Positions 1 to 7,004 of a stretch of 64,000 bases of DNA are shown here, in pieces. The notes under the pieces were generated by a model that was given only the letters and a program-made list of their open reading frames with translations, made no database searches and was not told the origin of the DNA. Position 1 is the first letter of the stretch, and every line of letters starts with the position of its first letter. The position numbers were made by a program, and so were the translations under genes. Source of the stretch: an uncultured Candidatus Saccharibacteria bacterium (lineage in GTDB: Bacteria > Patescibacteriota > Saccharimonadia > Saccharimonadales > EFPC-124); NCBI GenBank assembly GCA_964550035.1, contig CAZJVU010000003.1:1383-65382 (forward strand), given 5' to 3'.

Positions 1-1468
1 TCTGATCGGTCACGACCATTTGCTCGATGATCGTCATGCGGCCGACGTAGCCAAATGGTACGGCCTCGGACTTGCCAGGCTTATAGAGCGTGATGGTGTC
101 GAGGTCAGGCATTGGGACGCTGGCAGGTAATCCTTCGAGCTGTTTGCGGATGTAGTTCTTGGTGGCTTCGTCGGGCGTATAAGGCACTTTAGTCGCGTCA
201 TCGAGCCGACGCACAAGGCGCTGGCCCACAACCAAACGGATAGCCGTGCTGAAGATCGGGTTCTGACCAATCATGTCAATCATACGGCTAAACGCTGTCG
301 AGGCCGTGCTGGCGTGGAATGTGCTGAGCACCAGGTGACCCGTGATCGACGCCTGAATCGCCGTCTTGGCTGTGTCGACGTCACGAATTTCTCCCACCAT
401 CACCACGTCAGGGTCAAGTCGGAGGACGGCGCGAAGCTTTTCGGCAAAACTATCACCAGCCTGCGTGTTCACCGGTATCTGACTGACGCCAGGAATGCTA
501 AACTCAACTGGATCTTCTAGAGTCAAAATCTTTCGGCCAGGGTCGTTCAGCGCGTTGAGAATGCTATACAGTGTGGTCGACTTGCCGGAACCAGTCGGGC
601 CAACCATCAGCACCATGCCGTGCGGGTGATCGATGATTTGCTGGAAATTACCAACTTGTGCATCAGTCATGCCGAGATTGTCCAGCCGTAACAGGTTTGC
701 ATCGAAGTTAAACAACCGGATAACCGCATCTTGTCCGTAGACAGTCGGCACGGTTTCGATACGCATGTTCAGTAAACGTGTCTTACCGTCGGCCTCTTGG
801 ATATCTTGTTGCATGTGGCCGGTCTGGGCATCGCTGGCGGCAGTCGAGATGTTGGCGCGTGAGGCGATCGACGCGAAGAGCACGCGGTATTTATCTTTGC
901 TCAGGTTTGCCACTGGGTGCAATGCGCCATCGACGCGCATACGCACGCGTACGTCGTCGCGCTGAGACTCGAGGTGAATGTCTGAGGCATTCAGTTTGTC
1001 AGCTTGCTTAATAAGATAGTTCAGAACATCGTCAGAACGCACTGATTCCAGCGTCTTGCTGACTTCACTGATCGTGGCACTGTCACCTTCGGTGGCGATT
1101 TTGACGTCGTTATACACGACTTTCTTTGGCGGGTCGTAACGAAGCATGAGCGCGCGGTAACCAGCGTTACTCATCACGACAAACTGCACGAGCCGACCTT
1201 CGAATCGCTCGCGGATCTGCCGCAAAAGCTGCTGCGGCGTATTGATGGTGATACCGAATACGAGCGGCGCGTTCTCGCCATTATCAGAGATCGGCACAAT
1301 GTGGCCCTGGTACATTTCGGGGATGCTCAGCAAGCCCTGGTACAGGGGGCTATCGGGCGCAAGCTCACGCGAATCAAAATACTGCAGCCCCAACATGTTC
1401 GCGCGCTGAAGTGTGTGTGCCTCTTCTTGATCGCGGAATTTTGCCGCGTCATCATCATGCATAGCCAT
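1..1468 (-). CDS. pilB: Type IV pilus / type II secretion assembly ATPase (PilB/GspE family); C-terminus lies beyond the window start
   Basis: Absent from the ORF track because it is cut by the window edge. Manual translation from ATG at 1468 gives MAMHDDDAAKFRDQEEAHTLQRANMLGLQYFDSR... It contains Walker A GPTGSGKSTT plus LTLEDPVEF and VMVGEIRD motifs typical of GspE/PilB ATPases. Confidence 0.85.
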   Translation of the reverse strand, partial: MAMHDDDAAKFRDQEEAHTLQRANMLGLQYFDSRELAPDSPLYQGLLSIPEMYQGHIVPISDNGENAPLVFGITINTPQQLLRQIRERFEGRLVQFVVMSNAGYRALMLRYDPPKKVVYNDVKIATEGDSATISEVSKTLESVRSDDVLNYLIKQADKLNASDIHLESQRDDVRVRMRVDGALHPVANLSKDKYRVLFASIASRANISTAASDAQTGHMQQDIQEADGKTRLLNMRIETVPTVYGQDAVIRLFNFDANLLRLDNLGMTDAQVGNFQQIIDHPHGMVLMVGPTGSGKSTTLYSILNALNDPGRKILTLEDPVEFSIPGVSQIPVNTQAGDSFAEKLRAVLRLDPDVVMVGEIRDVDTAKTAIQASITGHLVLSTFHASTASTAFSRMIDMIGQNPIFSTAIRLVVGQRLVRRLDDATKVPYTPDEATKNYIRKQLEGLPASVPMPDLDTITLYKPGKSEAVPFGYVGRMTIIEQMVVTDQ

Positions 1469-1575
1469 ATACCAATACTATAGCAAATCACAAGCGGTAT
1501 GACGCTACTATTTTCGGCGCGTATTCGTCGTTTACGACTCATCAGCACGGCTGGGTTCATCCGTGGTACGCAGAA

Positions 1576-1612
1576 GGGGGCGCGGGCTGCATGTGCCACC
1601 GCGCGCCTCCCC
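1576..1612 (-). terminator. GC-rich imperfect hairpin downstream of cassette ORF A
   Basis: Inverted repeat gggggcgcggg...ccgcgcgcctcccc about 20 nt after the ORF A stop. It has bulges and no U-tract. Confidence 0.4.
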
Positions 1613-1632
1613 GTGTTTCGTCTTTGGTCTTG

Positions 1633-2520
1633 TCAGTCCGATGACTCGGCCATCCGAGGCACCATGACGGCCTCGGTGATTCGAGCCGTGTAGAGCTCCA
1701 TCATGTCCGTCTCGAGCGACTTGAGCTTGTCCACGAACTCGGCCACGCTCCAGTGAGCGGCACCGCCAAGTCTCGTGCGGGTCTGGACGATGATTTTTGC
1801 AGTGATTCGATCCTGCATCCCGATGTTGTTGTCCATCGAGAAGCCAATCTCCCACTCGATCGTGACGTTCGCGGCCGCAGGGGCCAAAAATCGCACGACT
1901 GTACAGGCAGATCGGTCGATGGCCCCAACCCGAAGCATCGCCAGGGTCGCGTGGCTGTTGACGCTGTCCGGATAGATGGCGACCGCGATACCATGCGGCG
2001 TGACGGCAGCATTCGGCTCGGCCAGCGCCAGGCCATCACTGGCCGGACTTTGACGCCCGAAAACTTTGTATGTCTTCTCGCCGCTGTCCAGGACGATGAC
2101 CTCGAATGCGTGCGGGTGGATGGCGTATGTGCCAGGAGGCAGAACCGCTTCCTGTACGCCTTGTCGGCCACCGGCGGCGAGAAAGGTCTCGACGTCGGTG
2201 AAGTACCCGAAACGCGCATCGTACGGTGCAGTCAGAAGCTCCGACTGCGCGCCGATGTGCGATGTCACGACGCCCACGCAGCCGTCAGGGATGACGACCA
2301 TGTCGTAGACGTCGATGGTTCGCCGCACCGCGATGTGTCGCTTGCTGGGCAAAAGTCGAGGCTGCACGCCCCGCTCGTCTTGCTTAACGATGTTGCTGTT
2401 GCGACCGAGCCGCTCCACGCCAACCTTACCGTCTGGAACGGTAACATACGGCCAGCACAACAATCCCACCGCAGCGAGTGCGATAACGCCACCGATGCCA
2501 ATCCAAAAAACGGTGTCCAT
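1633..2520 (-). CDS. Cassette ORF A: membrane-anchored hypothetical protein (295 aa), possibly SPFH/band-7-like
   Basis: Long GC3-rich ORF with dense antisense shadow ORFs. ATG at 2520 is preceded by GAGGAG; the track start at 2532 is an upstream GTG. N-terminal TM helix VFWIGIGGVIALAAVGLLCW. The SPFH resemblance (GRQGVQEAVLPPGTYAIHP) is from memory only. Confidence 0.7.
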   Translation of the reverse strand: MDTVFWIGIGGVIALAAVGLLCWPYVTVPDGKVGVERLGRNSNIVKQDERGVQPRLLPSKRHIAVRRTIDVYDMVVIPDGCVGVVTSHIGAQSELLTAPYDARFGYFTDVETFLAAGGRQGVQEAVLPPGTYAIHPHAFEVIVLDSGEKTYKVFGRQSPASDGLALAEPNAAVTPHGIAVAIYPDSVNSHATLAMLRVGAIDRSACTVVRFLAPAAANVTIEWEIGFSMDNNIGMQDRITAKIIVQTRTRLGGAAHWSVAEFVDKLKSLETDMMELYTARITEAVMVPRMAESSD

Positions 2521-2565
2521 ACCTCTCCTCACCTTCGTGTCTCCTGAGTTGGACTACAGACGCAG

Positions 2566-2593
2566 ATTATACAATAATTATATGGAATGTAAA
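2566..2593 (-). promoter_or_regulatory. Sigma70-type promoter for ORF A (TTTACA-N16-TATAAT)
   Basis: On the minus strand, tttaca lies at 2588-2593 and tataat at 2566-2571. The stretch is AT-rich and sits ~45 nt upstream of the ATG at 2520. Confidence 0.55.
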
Positions 2594-2700
2594 TATGTGC
2601 ATACTCAAACGCCACCCGCCAAACTCCCCCTTGACGCCGACGCGAACGATATGCGATGATGACTTCGCTCATCACGAGCCCGAGCAGAGGGAGTACTTGC

Positions 2701-3147
2701 ATGACTGCCTATCGGCTTACCGCCACACATTCGATCACCCGTGACCGCGCCCGAGTCAACGGTAGTACCGGCATCATCCATCTCAGGTGTACGATCACCG
2801 TATACCTTCTCGCCCTTCAACCCGTCGTCGACACGCTGCTGCACACGTTCAACCCGCGTCACAGCGGCATCAGCATTCACGACGTCACCAGCCACCCCAC
2901 GCCTTACGGATTCGGAGCCAAGACCTGGAATTTCACCATGACTCTCCACACCACCACGAAGAAGGTGCGGACGCGTACATGGTGGGGTCGCCAGCTTCCG
3001 ACCATACAACTAGAAGTGCTTCCGTCCCAGCTCTTGGGACGATTCGAAGCGTTGCTCAGCCGTACCTGGAGTCGACTGAGTAGGAGCCAGCCAGCTTTCG
3101 CGGCCGACTCCGTGCAGTTCATTGGCGAGCTGCAGATGGTGGCCTGA
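2701..3147 (+). CDS. Cassette ORF B: hypothetical protein (148 aa), divergent from ORF A
   Basis: Third positions of the frame starting at ATG 2701 are about 70% G/C by hand count. AGGGAG lies 7 nt upstream. The competing minus ORF 2605-3009 puts its third positions on this frame's first positions. No family recognised. Confidence 0.55.
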   Translation: MTAYRLTATHSITRDRARVNGSTGIIHLRCTITVYLLALQPVVDTLLHTFNPRHSGISIHDVTSHPTPYGFGAKTWNFTMTLHTTTKKVRTRTWWGRQLPTIQLEVLPSQLLGRFEALLSRTWSRLSRSQPAFAADSVQFIGELQMVA

Positions 3148-3159
3148 ACGTCGACGCGC

Positions 3160-3200
3160 GGTGGCTCCGCATGGAGCCACCGCAGAGGGTGAGCCTCTGC
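3160..3200 (+). terminator. Two tandem hairpins after ORF B
   Basis: GGTGGCTCC-gcat-GGAGCCACC (3160-3181) is immediately followed by GCAGAGG-gtgag-CCTCTGC (3182-3200). Confidence 0.65.
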
Positions 3201-3222
3201 CGCTATTTACCTCTGTTATACT

Positions 3223-3720
3223 ATGTCTATGGCATTAATTGTTATCGCTCATAATATCCGTAGTACATATAATGTCGGCGCCATACTCCGCTCCTGTGAC
3301 GGATTTGGCGTGGGCACATTCTATGCGAGCGGCTATACACCCTACCCTGTCGTCCCCGGTGATATACGCCTACCTCATGAACGCGAAAAACTCACTCGCC
3401 AGATCGCTAAAACATCACTGGGGGCTGAGCGAACGGTATCAATTGACCACGTCGCAGAGCCGTCGGAGATTATCCAATCATACAAGGCACAAGGCTACAT
3501 TATTGCGGCGCTCGAGCAGTCCGATCAGTCCGTAAACCTTGCCGAATACCGCCCGCCTGAGAACCTCGTCCTTGTCCTCGGCGAAGAAGTCCATGGCGTA
3601 CCACATGCACTACTCGAACTCTGTAGCGTAACACTAGAAATCCCTATGGTCGGCCGCAAAGAATCGTTCAACGTGAGCGTTGCTACCGGTATTGCACTCT
3701 ATGCACTTTCAGTTGCATAA
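3223..3720 (+). CDS. SpoU/TrmH-family RNA 2'-O-methyltransferase
   Basis: 165 aa. NIRSTYNVGAILRSCDGFG and C-terminal LEIPMVGRKESFNVSVATGIALY match the SpoU methylase motifs. Confidence 0.8.
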   Translation: MSMALIVIAHNIRSTYNVGAILRSCDGFGVGTFYASGYTPYPVVPGDIRLPHEREKLTRQIAKTSLGAERTVSIDHVAEPSEIIQSYKAQGYIIAALEQSDQSVNLAEYRPPENLVLVLGEEVHGVPHALLELCSVTLEIPMVGRKESFNVSVATGIALYALSVA

Positions 3721-4718: not shown

Positions 4719-5297
4719 CTACTCCCTCCGCTGCGCACGCAGCCTTTCGACACGCTTGGTGCCCGCCGCGAACAGCTGCAGAATGTGCTTGATCGTGGGA
4801 GGAATGTCGACGTCGTCGACGCCCAGGTAAGGCAGCATCGTCTGGAGGAGCTGCTCCAGTTCGTGAGGCTCCATCAGTCGAACGAGCTCGAACGGGTGCG
4901 CGCTGCGTTGGGTCAAATGCATGCGGACGTCCGCTTCGCCGGAGACGAACACTGGCGTCTTGGAGCCGGCGAGTCGGATTGTGCTGTACGGCAGCTCACG
5001 CTGTGCGTTCGCGTACGACGCGTCGGACTTGCCTCGCGGAAGGACTCTCAGATGAACAGAGCACCCCTGCTCGTACTGAATGATCGCCCCACCCTGGAAG
5101 ACGTCGTTCTGCCTCGCCCCTTCCACCCGCAGCCCCATGAGGCCGAGAGTGATCCCCACTTCACCTGCACGCTCGTTGTGCGGCACACGATGAATGGGAG
5201 CTCGACGGCTGTTGGCGTCCAGAGGCGCGCGGTAGTTCCAATACACGACCATCATCGGTTTGGTGACCACGCACACTTCACGCTGAGGGCTTGTCAC
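4719..5297 (-). CDS. Cassette ORF C: hypothetical protein (192 aa), paralog of ORF D
   Basis: GC3-rich with a GTG start. Aligns over its full length with ORF D, e.g. RVPHNERAGE vs RVPVHERSGE and LRVLPRGKS vs VEVYPRGRS. Confidence 0.7.
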   Translation of the reverse strand: MTSPQREVCVVTKPMMVVYWNYRAPLDANSRRAPIHRVPHNERAGEVGITLGLMGLRVEGARQNDVFQGGAIIQYEQGCSVHLRVLPRGKSDASYANAQRELPYSTIRLAGSKTPVFVSGEADVRMHLTQRSAHPFELVRLMEPHELEQLLQTMLPYLGVDDVDIPPTIKHILQLFAAGTKRVERLRAQRRE

Positions 5298-5342
5298 GTT
5301 ATGGCCTCGATTCTTAAGTCAGAACACTTACGGACGTGCAAA

Positions 5343-5371
5343 AGTATAGAACGTTCCTAGCTTGCTGTCAA
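5343..5371 (-). promoter_or_regulatory. Sigma70-type promoter for ORF C (TTGACA-N17-TATACT)
   Basis: On the minus strand, ttgaca lies at 5366-5371 and tatact at 5343-5348, with a 17-nt spacer. It sits in an AT-rich gap between ORFs D and C. Confidence 0.65.
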
Positions 5372-5392
5372 AATATAAGTTCATTTCTCGTC

Positions 5393-5424
5393 GAGGAGTG
5401 GGCAGCGCAAACCGCCCACCCCTC
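5393..5424 (-). terminator. Hairpin after ORF D
   Basis: gaGGAGTGGGC-agcgcaaacc-GCCCACCCCtc with one mismatch, ~20 nt after the ORF D stop at 5442. Confidence 0.6.
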
Positions 5425-5441
5425 GACCATGTCCGCGGCGA

Positions 5442-6020
5442 CTACCGCCGGGTCAGCTCGTCGATCCGCCGCTTGCCCTGCTGCAAGAGCGCGCGAACGC
5501 GCTGGGTGGCAGGGTCAACATCCGTGGCGTCGACACCGAGGCGCGGCAGCACCCCGGCCAGGTACTGCACCAGCTGCGATGGCTGCAGCAGCCGCATGTG
5601 GTAGAGGCTGCTGCCAGAACGGTGCGAGCTGCCCATGCGCACGCTGGGCCGTTCGGAGATCACGGTGTAGCCACGCGCTGCTGACAGCGGGACCACGCGC
5701 ACCTGCGAGTCGTTCCGCCACCGTTCGTACTCCGCCTTCGACCTCCCTCTCGGGTAGACTTCGACGAAGGCCTCGCAGCCACTGTTGTACTCGAAGGTGG
5801 CGCTCTGCGGGTAAACGTTGCCGGTCTCCGATCCGTCGATAACGAGCCCGGCCAACGCGTAGATGATCGTCAGCTCACCACTGCGTTCGTGCACCGGCAC
5901 GCGATCGACGGGGATCGGCCGGTGGCTGCTGTCGTAGACGTGGTGGTACTGCCGGAGGGCGATCACCACCGGCTGACTGAACCGGCGCGCCGGTGGTACG
6001 TACTTCTGGGTTCTACCCAT
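5442..6020 (-). CDS. Cassette ORF D: hypothetical protein (192 aa), paralog of ORF C
   Basis: Trimmed from track ORF 5442-6119 to the ATG at 6020 (MGRTQKYVPP...). This removes the overlap with ORF E and gives the same length as ORF C. Confidence 0.7.
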   Translation of the reverse strand: MGRTQKYVPPARRFSQPVVIALRQYHHVYDSSHRPIPVDRVPVHERSGELTIIYALAGLVIDGSETGNVYPQSATFEYNSGCEAFVEVYPRGRSKAEYERWRNDSQVRVVPLSAARGYTVISERPSVRMGSSHRSGSSLYHMRLLQPSQLVQYLAGVLPRLGVDATDVDPATQRVRALLQQGKRRIDELTRR

Positions 6021-6052
6021 GACTTGTCTCGCTTTCTGTGCGTTGGAAAAAG

Positions 6053-6526
6053 TCAGGCGCTCTGCGTCTGCGCCACGTAGATCTTGGCCAGGTGCTCCTG
6101 CGACAGCTGCAGACCGCACTCGCGGACCATCGAGCCGTCAGTGTTGAGCAGTTGGATCGAATCGTGCATGGGGCGCCCGACGTAACGGACGCCGTCGATC
6201 TTGACCATGCAGGCCAAACTCGTGACCGCGCGCTGCCGCTCCGGGACACCGTCCCAGATGATGCGCAACGGCTTCTGGTTCACGCGAGGGTTCAGCACGT
6301 AGACCGTCGAAGGCCGGTAAAAGAAGGTCTCTCGGCGGCCGCGACGTACGAAGCGCCCCTCCTTCTTGACCGTGATCCACCAGCACTTCGAGCACAGCTC
6401 ATCGGCGAAGAGACACTCGCCGGCACCGCGCGCACTGGCGCCGCAGGCGCAACATCGATCGGGCGAATTCTCCACATGGATCTTGAACGTGGCCAAATCG
6501 ACCAAGTTCACGCTTGCCAAAGACAC
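6053..6526 (-). CDS. Cassette ORF E: hypothetical Cys-cluster (zinc-ribbon-like) protein (157 aa)
   Basis: GTG start 8 nt after AAGGAG. Contains DRCCACGASARGAGECLFADELCSKCWW, which gives two CxxC-like pairs. Its stop is 32 nt upstream of the ORF D start, so co-transcription is likely. Confidence 0.7.
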   Translation of the reverse strand: MSLASVNLVDLATFKIHVENSPDRCCACGASARGAGECLFADELCSKCWWITVKKEGRFVRRGRRETFFYRPSTVYVLNPRVNQKPLRIIWDGVPERQRAVTSLACMVKIDGVRYVGRPMHDSIQLLNTDGSMVRECGLQLSQEHLAKIYVAQTQSA

Positions 6527-6566
6527 GGAATTGCTCCTTAAACCTAGACGTCTTACGGACTAAAGG

Positions 6567-6595
6567 ATTATAAAACTTCCCTCTACTCCTGTCAA
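6567..6595 (-). promoter_or_regulatory. Perfect-consensus sigma70 promoter for ORFs E-D (TTGACA-N17-TATAAT)
   Basis: On the minus strand, ttgaca lies at 6590-6595 and tataat at 6567-6572, with a 17-nt spacer. The stretch 6561-6600 has 13 G+C out of 40 by hand count. Confidence 0.7.
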
Positions 6596-6602
6596 AAAGA
6601 AT

Positions 6603-6622
6603 ATCGCTCTCGATAGAGCGAT
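6603..6622. promoter_or_regulatory. Palindrome just upstream of the E-D promoter
   Basis: ATCGCTCT-cgat-AGAGCGAT, with 8-bp arms, lying 8 nt beyond the -35 box. It could be an operator or an insulating hairpin. Confidence 0.35.
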
Positions 6623-6770
6623 TACATACAGGTGCGTATCTAGAATTAACTACAGATTTTATACTACCATATCCCGCTCGTCTATCCAAAATTGCTTAAT
6701 GTGTGAAATTTCTCATAGCTTCTTCTAAGATTTATGCTATATAGTATGGACAGGAAAGGAGGTGTGAGGA

Positions 6771-7004
6771 ATGGACACAGGATACTACATATCAAACAAC
6801 TACATATACGGGCCCTCGCGTGGCGGGGAGTTCTACATCCAAGGCAATCGAATACATGGACCGCGTTACGACGGTCTTTTTTGGCTCGACGGATCAGGCT
6901 ATATCTACGGCCCCGTAGACTCTGGAAAGTTCTATATCCAGGGGAATCAAATATTCAAATCGTCGTCATTTGCGACGTCGCCAAACTTGCCTTGGTTCGC
7001 ATAA
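6771..7004 (+). CDS. Small four-repeat protein (77 aa)
   Basis: GGAAAGGAGGTG RBS. Four copies of a G-x-(F/Y)-(Y/W)-I-x-G-N-x-I-(Y/H)-G-P-like unit: GYYISNNYIYGP, GEFYIQGNRIHGP, GLFWLDGSGYIYGP, GKFYIQGNQIF. Composition matches the core genome. Confidence 0.55.
   Translation: MDTGYYISNNYIYGPSRGGEFYIQGNRIHGPRYDGLFWLDGSGYIYGPVDSGKFYIQGNQIFKSSSFATSPNLPWFA

Follow-up and report, generated by a model that had tools for sequence, protein, structure and literature searches.

The major vault protein (MVP) consists of beta-repeats followed by an SPFH-like shoulder, and both SPFH and vault cages depend on a coiled-coil tail. Known SPFH-NfeD gene pairs are arranged as co-oriented operons. For bacterial 'band 7' proteins whose models resemble MVP, an MVP-like nature has been proposed (Daly et al. 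2013, PMC3762200), and FliL is described as a stomatin-like accessory of the flagellar stator with a single transmembrane helix (PMC6426602). Among self-cleaving RNAs, a natural hammerhead with a U15.1-A16.1 pair is reported to cleave itself, though with a lower efficiency than a typical hammerhead (Perreault et al. 2011, PMC3088659). Type IV pili, in turn, are described as central to the Saccharibacteria lifestyle (PMC9894109, PMC11623550). Here, we analyse a 64,000-nt stretch of contig CAZJVU010000003.1 from an uncultured Saccharibacteria bacterium (the window), in which two divergent genes, referred to as A and B, lie at positions 1576-3200 beside a gene for a PilB-family ATPase, with a hammerhead-like motif between A and pilB.

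The region 1576-3200 is the junction of two conserved gene strings, one running leftward from A into pilB and the other running rightward from B into genes for a SpoU-family methyltransferase and a CAP-domain protein. The descriptive core of our reading is that A and B are real genes transmitted vertically, that the repeats of A are homologous to repeats of SPFH proteins, that the regulatory elements around both genes are conserved, and that the hammerhead-like motif is present; to these statements taken jointly we assign a probability of roughly 70%. An earlier note made from the letters of the window alone (the original prediction) had described A and B as a divergent foreign gene pair next to pilB. 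All sequence features that it listed are present at the coordinates that it gave, and its view of two divergent, real genes is borne out by the existence of homologues and by ratios of nonsynonymous to synonymous substitution (dN/dS) of 0.25-0.39. Its words 'foreign' and 'pair', as set out below, do not survive the comparison with related loci.

Two fast-evolving genes

Gene A runs from 2520 to 1633 on the minus strand and encodes 295 amino acids (aa) counted from an ATG that is preceded by the Shine-Dalgarno (SD) sequence GAGGAGAGG; an alternative GTG start at 2532 would give 299 aa. Gene B occupies 2701-3147 on the plus strand and encodes a protein of 148 aa with an isoelectric point of 11.1, whose family is confined to Saccharimonadales. 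The two genes diverge from a spacer of exactly 180 nt (2521-2700).

The coding strand of B had previously been assigned from third-position bias alone, estimated by hand at about 70% G+C; the computed G+C content at third codon positions (GC3) is 0.72, and strand and frame are both confirmed by comparison between loci. Specifically, differences at codon positions 1/2/3 amount to 50/38/72, 39/42/62 and 43/35/58 in comparisons among the window and two related loci, L003 and L005. Since the third codon positions vary most and dN/dS lies below 1, B is read as coding on the plus strand. The Nei-Gojobori method gives B a dN/dS of 0.28-0.39 and A one of 0.25-0.36, against 0.035-0.09 for neighbouring genes. 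Judged from these comparative patterns, A and B are genuine genes that evolve 5-10 times faster than their neighbours.

Two other open reading frames (ORFs) that compete with B were rejected. If the antisense ORF 2605-3009 were the gene, variation would peak at its first codon position; moreover, this ORF differs in length between loci (134, 220 and 87 aa). A longer form of B starting at the in-frame ATG 2656 (163 aa) is contradicted by the upstream block, whose frame differs between the window and L003 and which contains a stop in L005.

Conserved promoters, leaders and hairpins

A promoter scan of the region returned five promoter-like sites, against 1.2 expected. The motif TTTACA-N16-TATAAT at 2566-2593, which had already been listed in the original prediction, is the promoter of A; it reads on the minus strand, agrees with the consensus at 11 of 12 positions, and both of its hexamers are kept in four orthologous spacers. 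On the B side, where only the TTGACG at 2631-2636 had been recognised, the scan extends this by a spacer of 18 nt and a GATGAT ending at 2660, so that the complete plus-strand promoter TTGACG-N18-GATGAT spans 2631-2660 and carries a TG-extended -10 element (TGcGATGAT, 2652-2660). These elements are conserved in the window, L003, L005, L011 and L028. The inverted repeat TGATGA/TCATCA described for this half of the spacer is likewise present (2657-2662 and 2669-2674). A role for it as an operator or RNA hairpin was rejected, since the repeat shares bases with the -10 element, part of it would lie upstream of the probable start site, and orthologues do not keep it.

Downstream of its promoter, B has a non-coding leader with an SD sequence, CGAGCCCGAGCAGAGGGAG (2675-2693, plus strand), which is identical in four loci bar one inserted C; the conserved block ahead of the gene reads CGAGCCC(C)GAGCAGAGGGAG. 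Because the extra C changes the reading frame and the L005 copy is interrupted by an in-frame stop codon, this block is conserved as RNA or DNA and not as protein.

Both genes end in GC-rich hairpins. About 20 nt after the A stop codon, a GC-rich hairpin without a U-tract (1576-1612, minus strand) is supported by RNAfold and alignment, and a long stem follows A in all orthologues despite their differing sequences. The 3' hairpin of B (3158-3183, plus strand) has an 11-bp stem with perfect arms (3158-3168 and 3173-3183), a 4-nt loop and no U-tract. An equivalent hairpin with a different stem sequence is found in all ten B-bearing loci, none with a U-tract, and it is a probable terminator or stabiliser. 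Two back-to-back hairpins had been proposed after B; both form in the window, the first being longer than described, and the second (3182-3200, plus strand) is not formed in the orthologues. The idea that it belongs to a tandem terminator was dropped for this lack of conservation. Its 3' arm, the box CCTCTGC (3194-3200), is kept as a sequence in 8 of 10 loci. This box is the reverse complement of the GCAGAGG in B's own conserved SD leader (2684-2690), and a second CCTCTG (3210-3215) abuts the -10 element of the SpoU gene.

Taken together, the alignments indicate that A and B each have their own conserved sigma-70-type promoter, an SD leader and a terminal GC-rich hairpin without a U-tract. An extended -10 element, TGcTATAGT (1477-1485, minus strand), lies 8 nt before the pilB ATG within the block GCTTGTGATTTGCTATAGTAT, which is kept in all loci, including those lacking A. 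For the SpoU gene, the extended -10 element is TGtTATACT (3214-3222, plus strand), and TGnTATAAT stands 6-8 nt before a conserved ATG in all loci; from this conservation, the start is probably ATG 3229 and not 3223. The conserved TGnTATAnT at 6-8 nt before the ATG, together with the absence of an SD sequence, suggests leaderless mRNAs for both pilB (1466-1485) and SpoU (3214-3231), and pilB, on the same sequence grounds, probably has its own promoter and is leaderless.

A hammerhead-like motif between A and pilB

Between the 3' hairpin of A and the pilB promoter lies a 55-nt type III hammerhead-like motif (1518-1572, minus strand), identified by the Rfam family RF00008, alignment and folding. 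Stem III pairs UGCGUA with UACGCG, and the putative cleavage site is C17 (1566); stem I pairs CACGG with CCGUG around a 10-nt loop; and the core CUGAUGA leads into stem II (GUCG-UAAA-CGAC) and then GAA. All nucleotides of the hammerhead core, C3 U4 G5 A6 N7 G8 A9 … G12 A13 A14 and H17, are in place. The motif is present and nearly invariant in all 11 distinct A-to-pilB spacer sequences examined and absent from loci that have only B. Throughout these 11 sequences, CUGAUGA (CUGACGA in L003), GAA and C17 are retained.

The structure is consistent across the alignment. Stems I and II are capped and stem III is open, pairing holds in 98.8% of pair cells (7-51% in slid controls), and the same three-way junction appears in the minimum free energy fold. 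Compensatory change occurs at two pairs, a C-G to U-A change in stem I (L026) and covariation at the sixth pair of stem III. RF00008 is the sole Rfam match in seven further loci. A metagenome pattern scan for the motif returned 11 loci, with further copies only in this clade: one hit (L024) re-finds the contig of L005, three (L015, L016 and L018) hold further copies, and the remaining seven are chance matches without stems.

Several observations speak against a functional hammerhead. In the window, RF00008 scores 28.9 bits with an E-value of 0.0016, where the gathering score is 48.5, and over eight loci the scores range from 25.9 to 34.1 bits, so that the motif falls 15-20 bits under the threshold. 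The 15.1-16.1 pair is the disfavoured U-A, not A-U, in every copy, and Infernal models two 1-nt insertions at this place instead; the low score is attributed to this pair. Moreover, 13 of 15 stem pairs are invariant, which leaves the covariation support thin, and the z-score of the fold is -1.7.

The main rival is that the motif may be no ribozyme. It would instead be a conserved element that binds a protein or regulates at the DNA level, or else the relic of a hammerhead that has decayed and become inactive. This is a serious prospect, if a less than even one. It would account for stems that hardly vary even where the A proteins share 36-42% identity, a degree of constraint beyond what the fold requires, and it agrees with the U-A pair, with the Rfam score under threshold and with the inactive hammerhead-like RNAs listed by Perreault et al. 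(PMC3088659). Yet the remaining core nucleotides are all intact, and variation sits exactly where hammerheads tolerate change, namely at N7 (U to C in L003), in loop I (nine variants) and in loop II. The two compensatory pairs also count against this rival, and a decayed copy would not have remained unchanged throughout the clade. On balance, the sequence pattern leans towards an active ribozyme. If so, read-through transcripts would self-cleave after C17, between 1566 and 1565. This would leave the A mRNA capped by its 3' hairpin and uncouple it from pilB, which would start at its own promoter.

Gene A as a minimal SPFH-like protein

The AlphaFold2 model of A, built from the family alignment, reaches a predicted local distance difference test (pLDDT) score of 85 and a predicted template modelling score (pTM) of 0.80. 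It places a transmembrane helix at residues 2-21, beta-repeat 1 at 25-73, beta-repeat 2 at 75-144 with an insert at 88-120, and an alpha/beta domain at 152-286 of the protein encoded at 1633-2520 (minus strand). Each repeat contains five strands by DSSP, and the C-terminal domain ends in a beta-beta-alpha-alpha-beta arrangement. The N-terminal membrane anchor proposed earlier thus has its counterpart in the modelled hydrophobic helix. Fifteen close homologues share 39-76% identity, and the family occurs in Saccharimonadales only, at a single locus.

Searching 1.84 billion representative sequences with the A-family profile returned 791 proteins at E<=1e-3. Their matches span residues ~5-145 of the query, barring four more full-length A-like proteins, and the repeat module occurs in 1-14 copies per protein. 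Among 15 relatives sampled against Pfam, 12 have Band_7 after the repeats. One Band_7 protein, P0016, matches at E 3.5e-5 (5.8e9 sequences searched) and aligns with A by BLASTP at 26% identity over 206 columns; the Ralstonia plasmid protein WP_024979564.1, annotated by PGAP as 'SPFH domain-containing protein', also matches. Judged by these profiles, there is no ambiguity about the N-terminal half of A: it is homologous to the repeats that precede the SPFH domain in a subfamily of bacterial SPFH proteins.

For the rest of the protein the case is weaker; the homology to bona fide Band_7 proteins covers residues ~5-145 only. An in-house SPFH profile matches 97 of 180 proteins in a set that includes the A and B families. 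Its match on the A family was discounted, for it contained the end of repeat 2, and a first hhalign run (E 8.7e-10) was set aside for the same flaw in its query. Using residues 146-295 of A in a 20-sequence alignment, hhalign pairs A's two helices and the preceding hairpin with the core of the 97 SPFH domains (probability 87%, P 4.1e-6, 87 columns). In Foldseek against the PDB, MVP ranks first (E 2.5e-3), and stomatin, HflK/C and erlin follow at E 0.03-0.16.

A number of results weigh against placing A among SPFH proteins. An hmmscan of A against Pfam at E<=1 returned no family at all, neither Band_7 nor Vault (PF01505) nor MVP_shoulder (PF11978). Nothing significant was obtained for A from NCBIfam, PHROGs or PADLOC, and a sequence profile search of the PDB gave no match. 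An earlier, cruder hhalign run restricted to residues 146-295 gave P 0.007, and the Foldseek E-values are all at or above 2.5e-3, with TM-scores of 0.17-0.25. In the model, A stops at residue 295 after a final strand at 278-286 and has no long helix or coiled-coil tail, whereas its relatives run 150-300 aa further C-terminally. Finally, the membrane anchor is not universal in the family according to the orthologue alignment: P0003 and P0004 (from L003 and L004) have lost ~16 residues of the N-terminal helix, which is mostly missing in them. The SPFH-like body proposed for A thus stands in part, for the repeats are homologous to those of Band_7 proteins and A itself has no Band_7 match.

Could the C-terminal domain be an unrelated beta2-alpha2-beta module, for example an eS1-like one, that was fused to the repeats? 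Foldseek gives probabilities of up to 0.97 for archaeal and eukaryotic small-subunit ribosomal chains (root-mean-square deviation, rmsd, 4.6 over 103 columns) against 0.82 for stomatin, and there is no Band_7 hidden Markov model match. On the other hand, the profile-profile alignment reaches the SPFH domains of A's own remote relatives at P 4e-6, the domain occupies the same place after the last repeat, and its IEWE/ILEW strand and two helices align with SPFH domains. A fused, unrelated module falls on the unlikely side, and SPFH ancestry of the domain is somewhat favoured. We read A as belonging to the SPFH superfamily in the wide sense, as a minimal protein tethered to the membrane, and one that fails the Band_7 family's own test. 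It would represent an offshoot of the bacterial 'beta-repeats + Band_7' proteins that lacks the coiled coil, and it may serve at the membrane as a tethered scaffold or accessory, perhaps together with the PilB-family ATPase encoded next to it. Such a functional link to PilB is rather doubtful. PilB is kept without A in three lineages, a point that counts against the link, so any partnership would be dispensable.

The search also brought to light giant bacterial proteins of 1208-1793 aa (P0021, P0024, P0027, P0029 and P0034) that carry 6-14 A-type beta-repeats followed by Band_7, with a C-terminal VWA domain added in P0021, P0024 and P0034. They display a vault-like domain order in bacteria, and their repeats are not covered by Pfam.

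Gene B, a basic protein of Saccharimonadales

The B family comprises 21 members of 144-162 aa, none of which has a Pfam domain. NCBIfam, PHROGs and PADLOC gave nothing significant for B, and the best hit of a sequence profile search of the PDB has an E-value of 1.4. Its model (pLDDT 74) shows a beta-beta-alpha-beta-beta unit followed by a long helix. Foldseek finds nothing convincing in the PDB (9lbn_K has a TM-score of 0.48) and, in BFVD, a weak resemblance to phage tail-terminator and tail-completion proteins at E ~1e-3. The beta-beta-alpha-beta-beta-alpha order of these DUF3168-like proteins is also that of the B model, and the BFVD matches have probabilities of 0.97-1.0 with rmsd 4.2-4.6 over ~95 residues. 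In contrast to such proteins, B shows TM-scores of 0.3-0.48 to them, has no sequence, PHROG or phage tblastn match, and is a fixed chromosomal gene without phage neighbours. The likeness, which comes from a predicted model, may serve as a lead and not as an assignment.

As the fold matches are weak throughout (TM-scores 0.35-0.48), any function of B is a guess. Because of its charge and its place upstream of an RNA methyltransferase gene, B may be a nucleic-acid- or ribosome-binding accessory protein; nucleic-acid binding is a tentative suggestion, with the odds against it. As such, B adds another conserved, very basic Saccharibacteria orphan without an informative match.

Distribution and vertical descent

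Every related contig has the order DnaE … CAP - SpoU - (B) / (A) - PilB - … L19, and the A/B junction occupies the same position and orientation in at least 13 Saccharimonadales lineages. A and B occur together in the window, L003, L005, L009, L010, L011, L015 and L027 and, as it appears, in two further contigs; L008 and L026 have A but not B, whereas L013, L028 and the P0180 contig have only B.

This distribution bears directly on the notion of a pair. A two-gene functional system, for instance an SPFH-NfeD, toxin-antitoxin or anti-phage defence module, might be suspected because the genes are adjacent and diverge from a shared 180-nt spacer in 10 lineages. Their independent occurrences, A without B in two lineages and B without A in three, disfavour an obligate system. 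Furthermore, PADLOC returned no matches, none of the 21 B family members matches NfeD or any other Pfam family, B has no transmembrane segments, and known SPFH-NfeD pairs are co-oriented, whereas A and B are divergent. A joint system is accordingly very improbable.

The pattern of divergence is equally informative. Relative to the window, identity is 81-91% for PilB, 68-87% for CAP, 64-80% for SpoU, 36-65% for A and 37-61% for B, and the ranking of loci is the same for all five (L003 > L005 > rest), which argues for vertical descent with fast evolution and not for transfer. In 50,697 phage and 72,556 plasmid records, tblastn gave zero matches for B and, for A, remote matches to the repeat module only, with no close copies. 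Within 12 kb of A/B, no tRNA was found; there is no integrase nearby, and there are no bracketing repeats beyond chance. An 11-nt inverted repeat (1595-1605 and 3155-3165) was rejected as the ends of an element, about one being expected by chance and the repeat being missing in orthologues.

The whole window has a G+C content of ~55% and the stretch 1500-3200 one of ~0.58-0.64; GC3 is 0.74 for A and 0.72 for B, which places both in the upper tail among the long ORFs of the window (median 0.64, with values from 0.51 to 0.82). Other lineage-specific ORFs (4719-6526) have GC3 values of 0.76-0.84 and are also syntenic, so raised GC3 marks a class of genes and not foreignness. A horizontally acquired island would be marked by absence from the site in related genomes, hallmarks of mobile elements and an incongruent phylogeny; A and B instead are syntenic in at least 13 lineages and congruent with their neighbours in identity ranking.

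A recently acquired island, to which G+C of ~0.60 against ~0.53-0.55 in the flanks, GC3 of 0.72-0.74 against the median, patchy presence among relatives and the fast evolution of both genes could be credited, is thus largely refuted and scarcely probable at all, given the constant position and orientation in at least 13 lineages, the identity ranking shared with PilB, SpoU and CAP, the conserved promoters and leaders, the phage and plasmid searches that gave nothing for B and only remote repeat modules for A, the absence of a tRNA, integrase or bracketing repeats, and the equally raised GC3 of the syntenic ORFs at 4719-6526. From the comparison of loci, A and B are inherited vertically within Saccharimonadales, with independent gain or loss.

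Neighbouring genes

To the left, the ATPase gene (2-1468, minus strand) is cut by the window edge, leaving 489 of ~540 aa. It encodes a PilB/GspE-family (T2SSE) secretion or pilus ATPase (PF00437, E 3e-83) that matches both TIGR02533 and TIGR02538, yet stays below the equivalog cut-offs for GspE and PilB; its orthologues share 86-91% identity. To the right of B follow the SpoU-family methyltransferase (PF00588, E 1.6e-30), the CAP-domain protein and then DnaE.

Between CAP and DnaE, three minus-strand ORFs at 4719-5297, 5442-6119 and 6053-6526 encode basic proteins without family matches and have a high GC3 (0.76-0.84). Two of them, 4719-5297 and 5442-6119, are paralogous to each other (31% identity, E 6e-33), and all three have orthologues in the same variable CAP/DnaE slot of related loci. 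As the ORFs 5442-6119 and 6053-6526 overlap by 67 nt, the true start of the former is probably further downstream. A sharp AT-rich trough at 6530-6800 (G+C 0.37-0.40) separates this high-GC block from the end of dnaE.

Comparison with known systems

The results turn a suspected foreign island into a set of lineage-specific, fast-evolving, core-adjacent genes of a bacterium of the candidate phyla radiation (CPR), which is ordinary in kind. What is modestly interesting about the locus are the minimal vault-repeat/SPFH protein family and the conserved variant hammerhead-like motif.

A bolder hypothesis would join the parts. In this scenario, promoter, gene, hairpin and ribozyme of A would form one cassette, the frozen U15.1-A16.1 hammerhead would insulate leaderless pilB, and A, a vault-repeat/SPFH protein, would assist in the manner of FliL by tuning the PilB-family motor in these episymbiotic Saccharibacteria. 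This is a long shot. If true, a hammerhead with a 'disfavoured core' would have a natural role on a chromosome and outside phages, and a type IV pilus ATPase would have its first partner of the SPFH type. The likeness between FliL and A is one of concept: one transmembrane helix, an SPFH-like domain (putative in A) and no coiled coil, with both genes beside that of a motor component. No sequence or fold match between the two was obtained, which makes this an analogy only.

The motif shares with type III hammerheads (RF00008) the CUGANGA and GAA core, C17, the three stems and the sizes of stems and loops, and differs from them in the U-A pair at 15.1-16.1 in every copy and in a score below gathering. 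In contrast to the known prophage and repeat settings, it is located in the chromosomal, vertically inherited 3' untranslated region of a CPR bacterium. With a conserved motif of the rare U15.1-A16.1 core beside a pilus ATPase gene, possible mRNA processing by a ribozyme outside prophages becomes open to direct testing.

For A, the nearest described proteins are bacterial SPFH/Band_7 (PF01145) proteins with beta-repeat extensions, such as WP_024979564.1 on Ralstonia insidiosa plasmid pRI-1 and P0016, which JGI annotates as 'HflC (stomatin/prohibitin superfamily)'; the giant P0021, P0024 and P0034 are further examples, with the order repeats-Band_7-VWA. They have in common with A an N-terminal transmembrane helix, a subsequent repeat of ~50-75 aa with the pattern V-x-P-x-G-x-x-G-V-V … G-x-Q-G-x-Q … L-x-P-G-x-Y-x-I-x-P, and an alpha/beta domain after the last repeat, and the profile E-values reach 1e-97. 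A differs in having two repeats only, a shorter C-terminal domain that lies below Pfam detection, and neither a coiled coil nor any other C-terminal region.

MVP is the best PDB match to the A model in Foldseek (9z4w, E 2.5e-3, TM-score 0.24), and A superimposes on the MVP repeats R1-R7 (3gnf) with an rmsd of 4.1 over 126 columns. There is no sequence-level similarity between them; A has two repeats against nine in MVP and no cap-helix, and A is predicted to be membrane-anchored whereas MVP is soluble and forms cages. As far as the model of A shows, its order of domains resembles that of MVP, tandem antiparallel beta-repeats followed by an SPFH-like 'shoulder'. As such, the A family can be regarded as a minimal form of the bacterial 'beta-repeat + Band_7' proteins, a little-studied group with an architecture parallel to that of MVP, and a small, well-modelled protein of this kind could help to define the repeat and its relation to the evolution of SPFH proteins and vaults.

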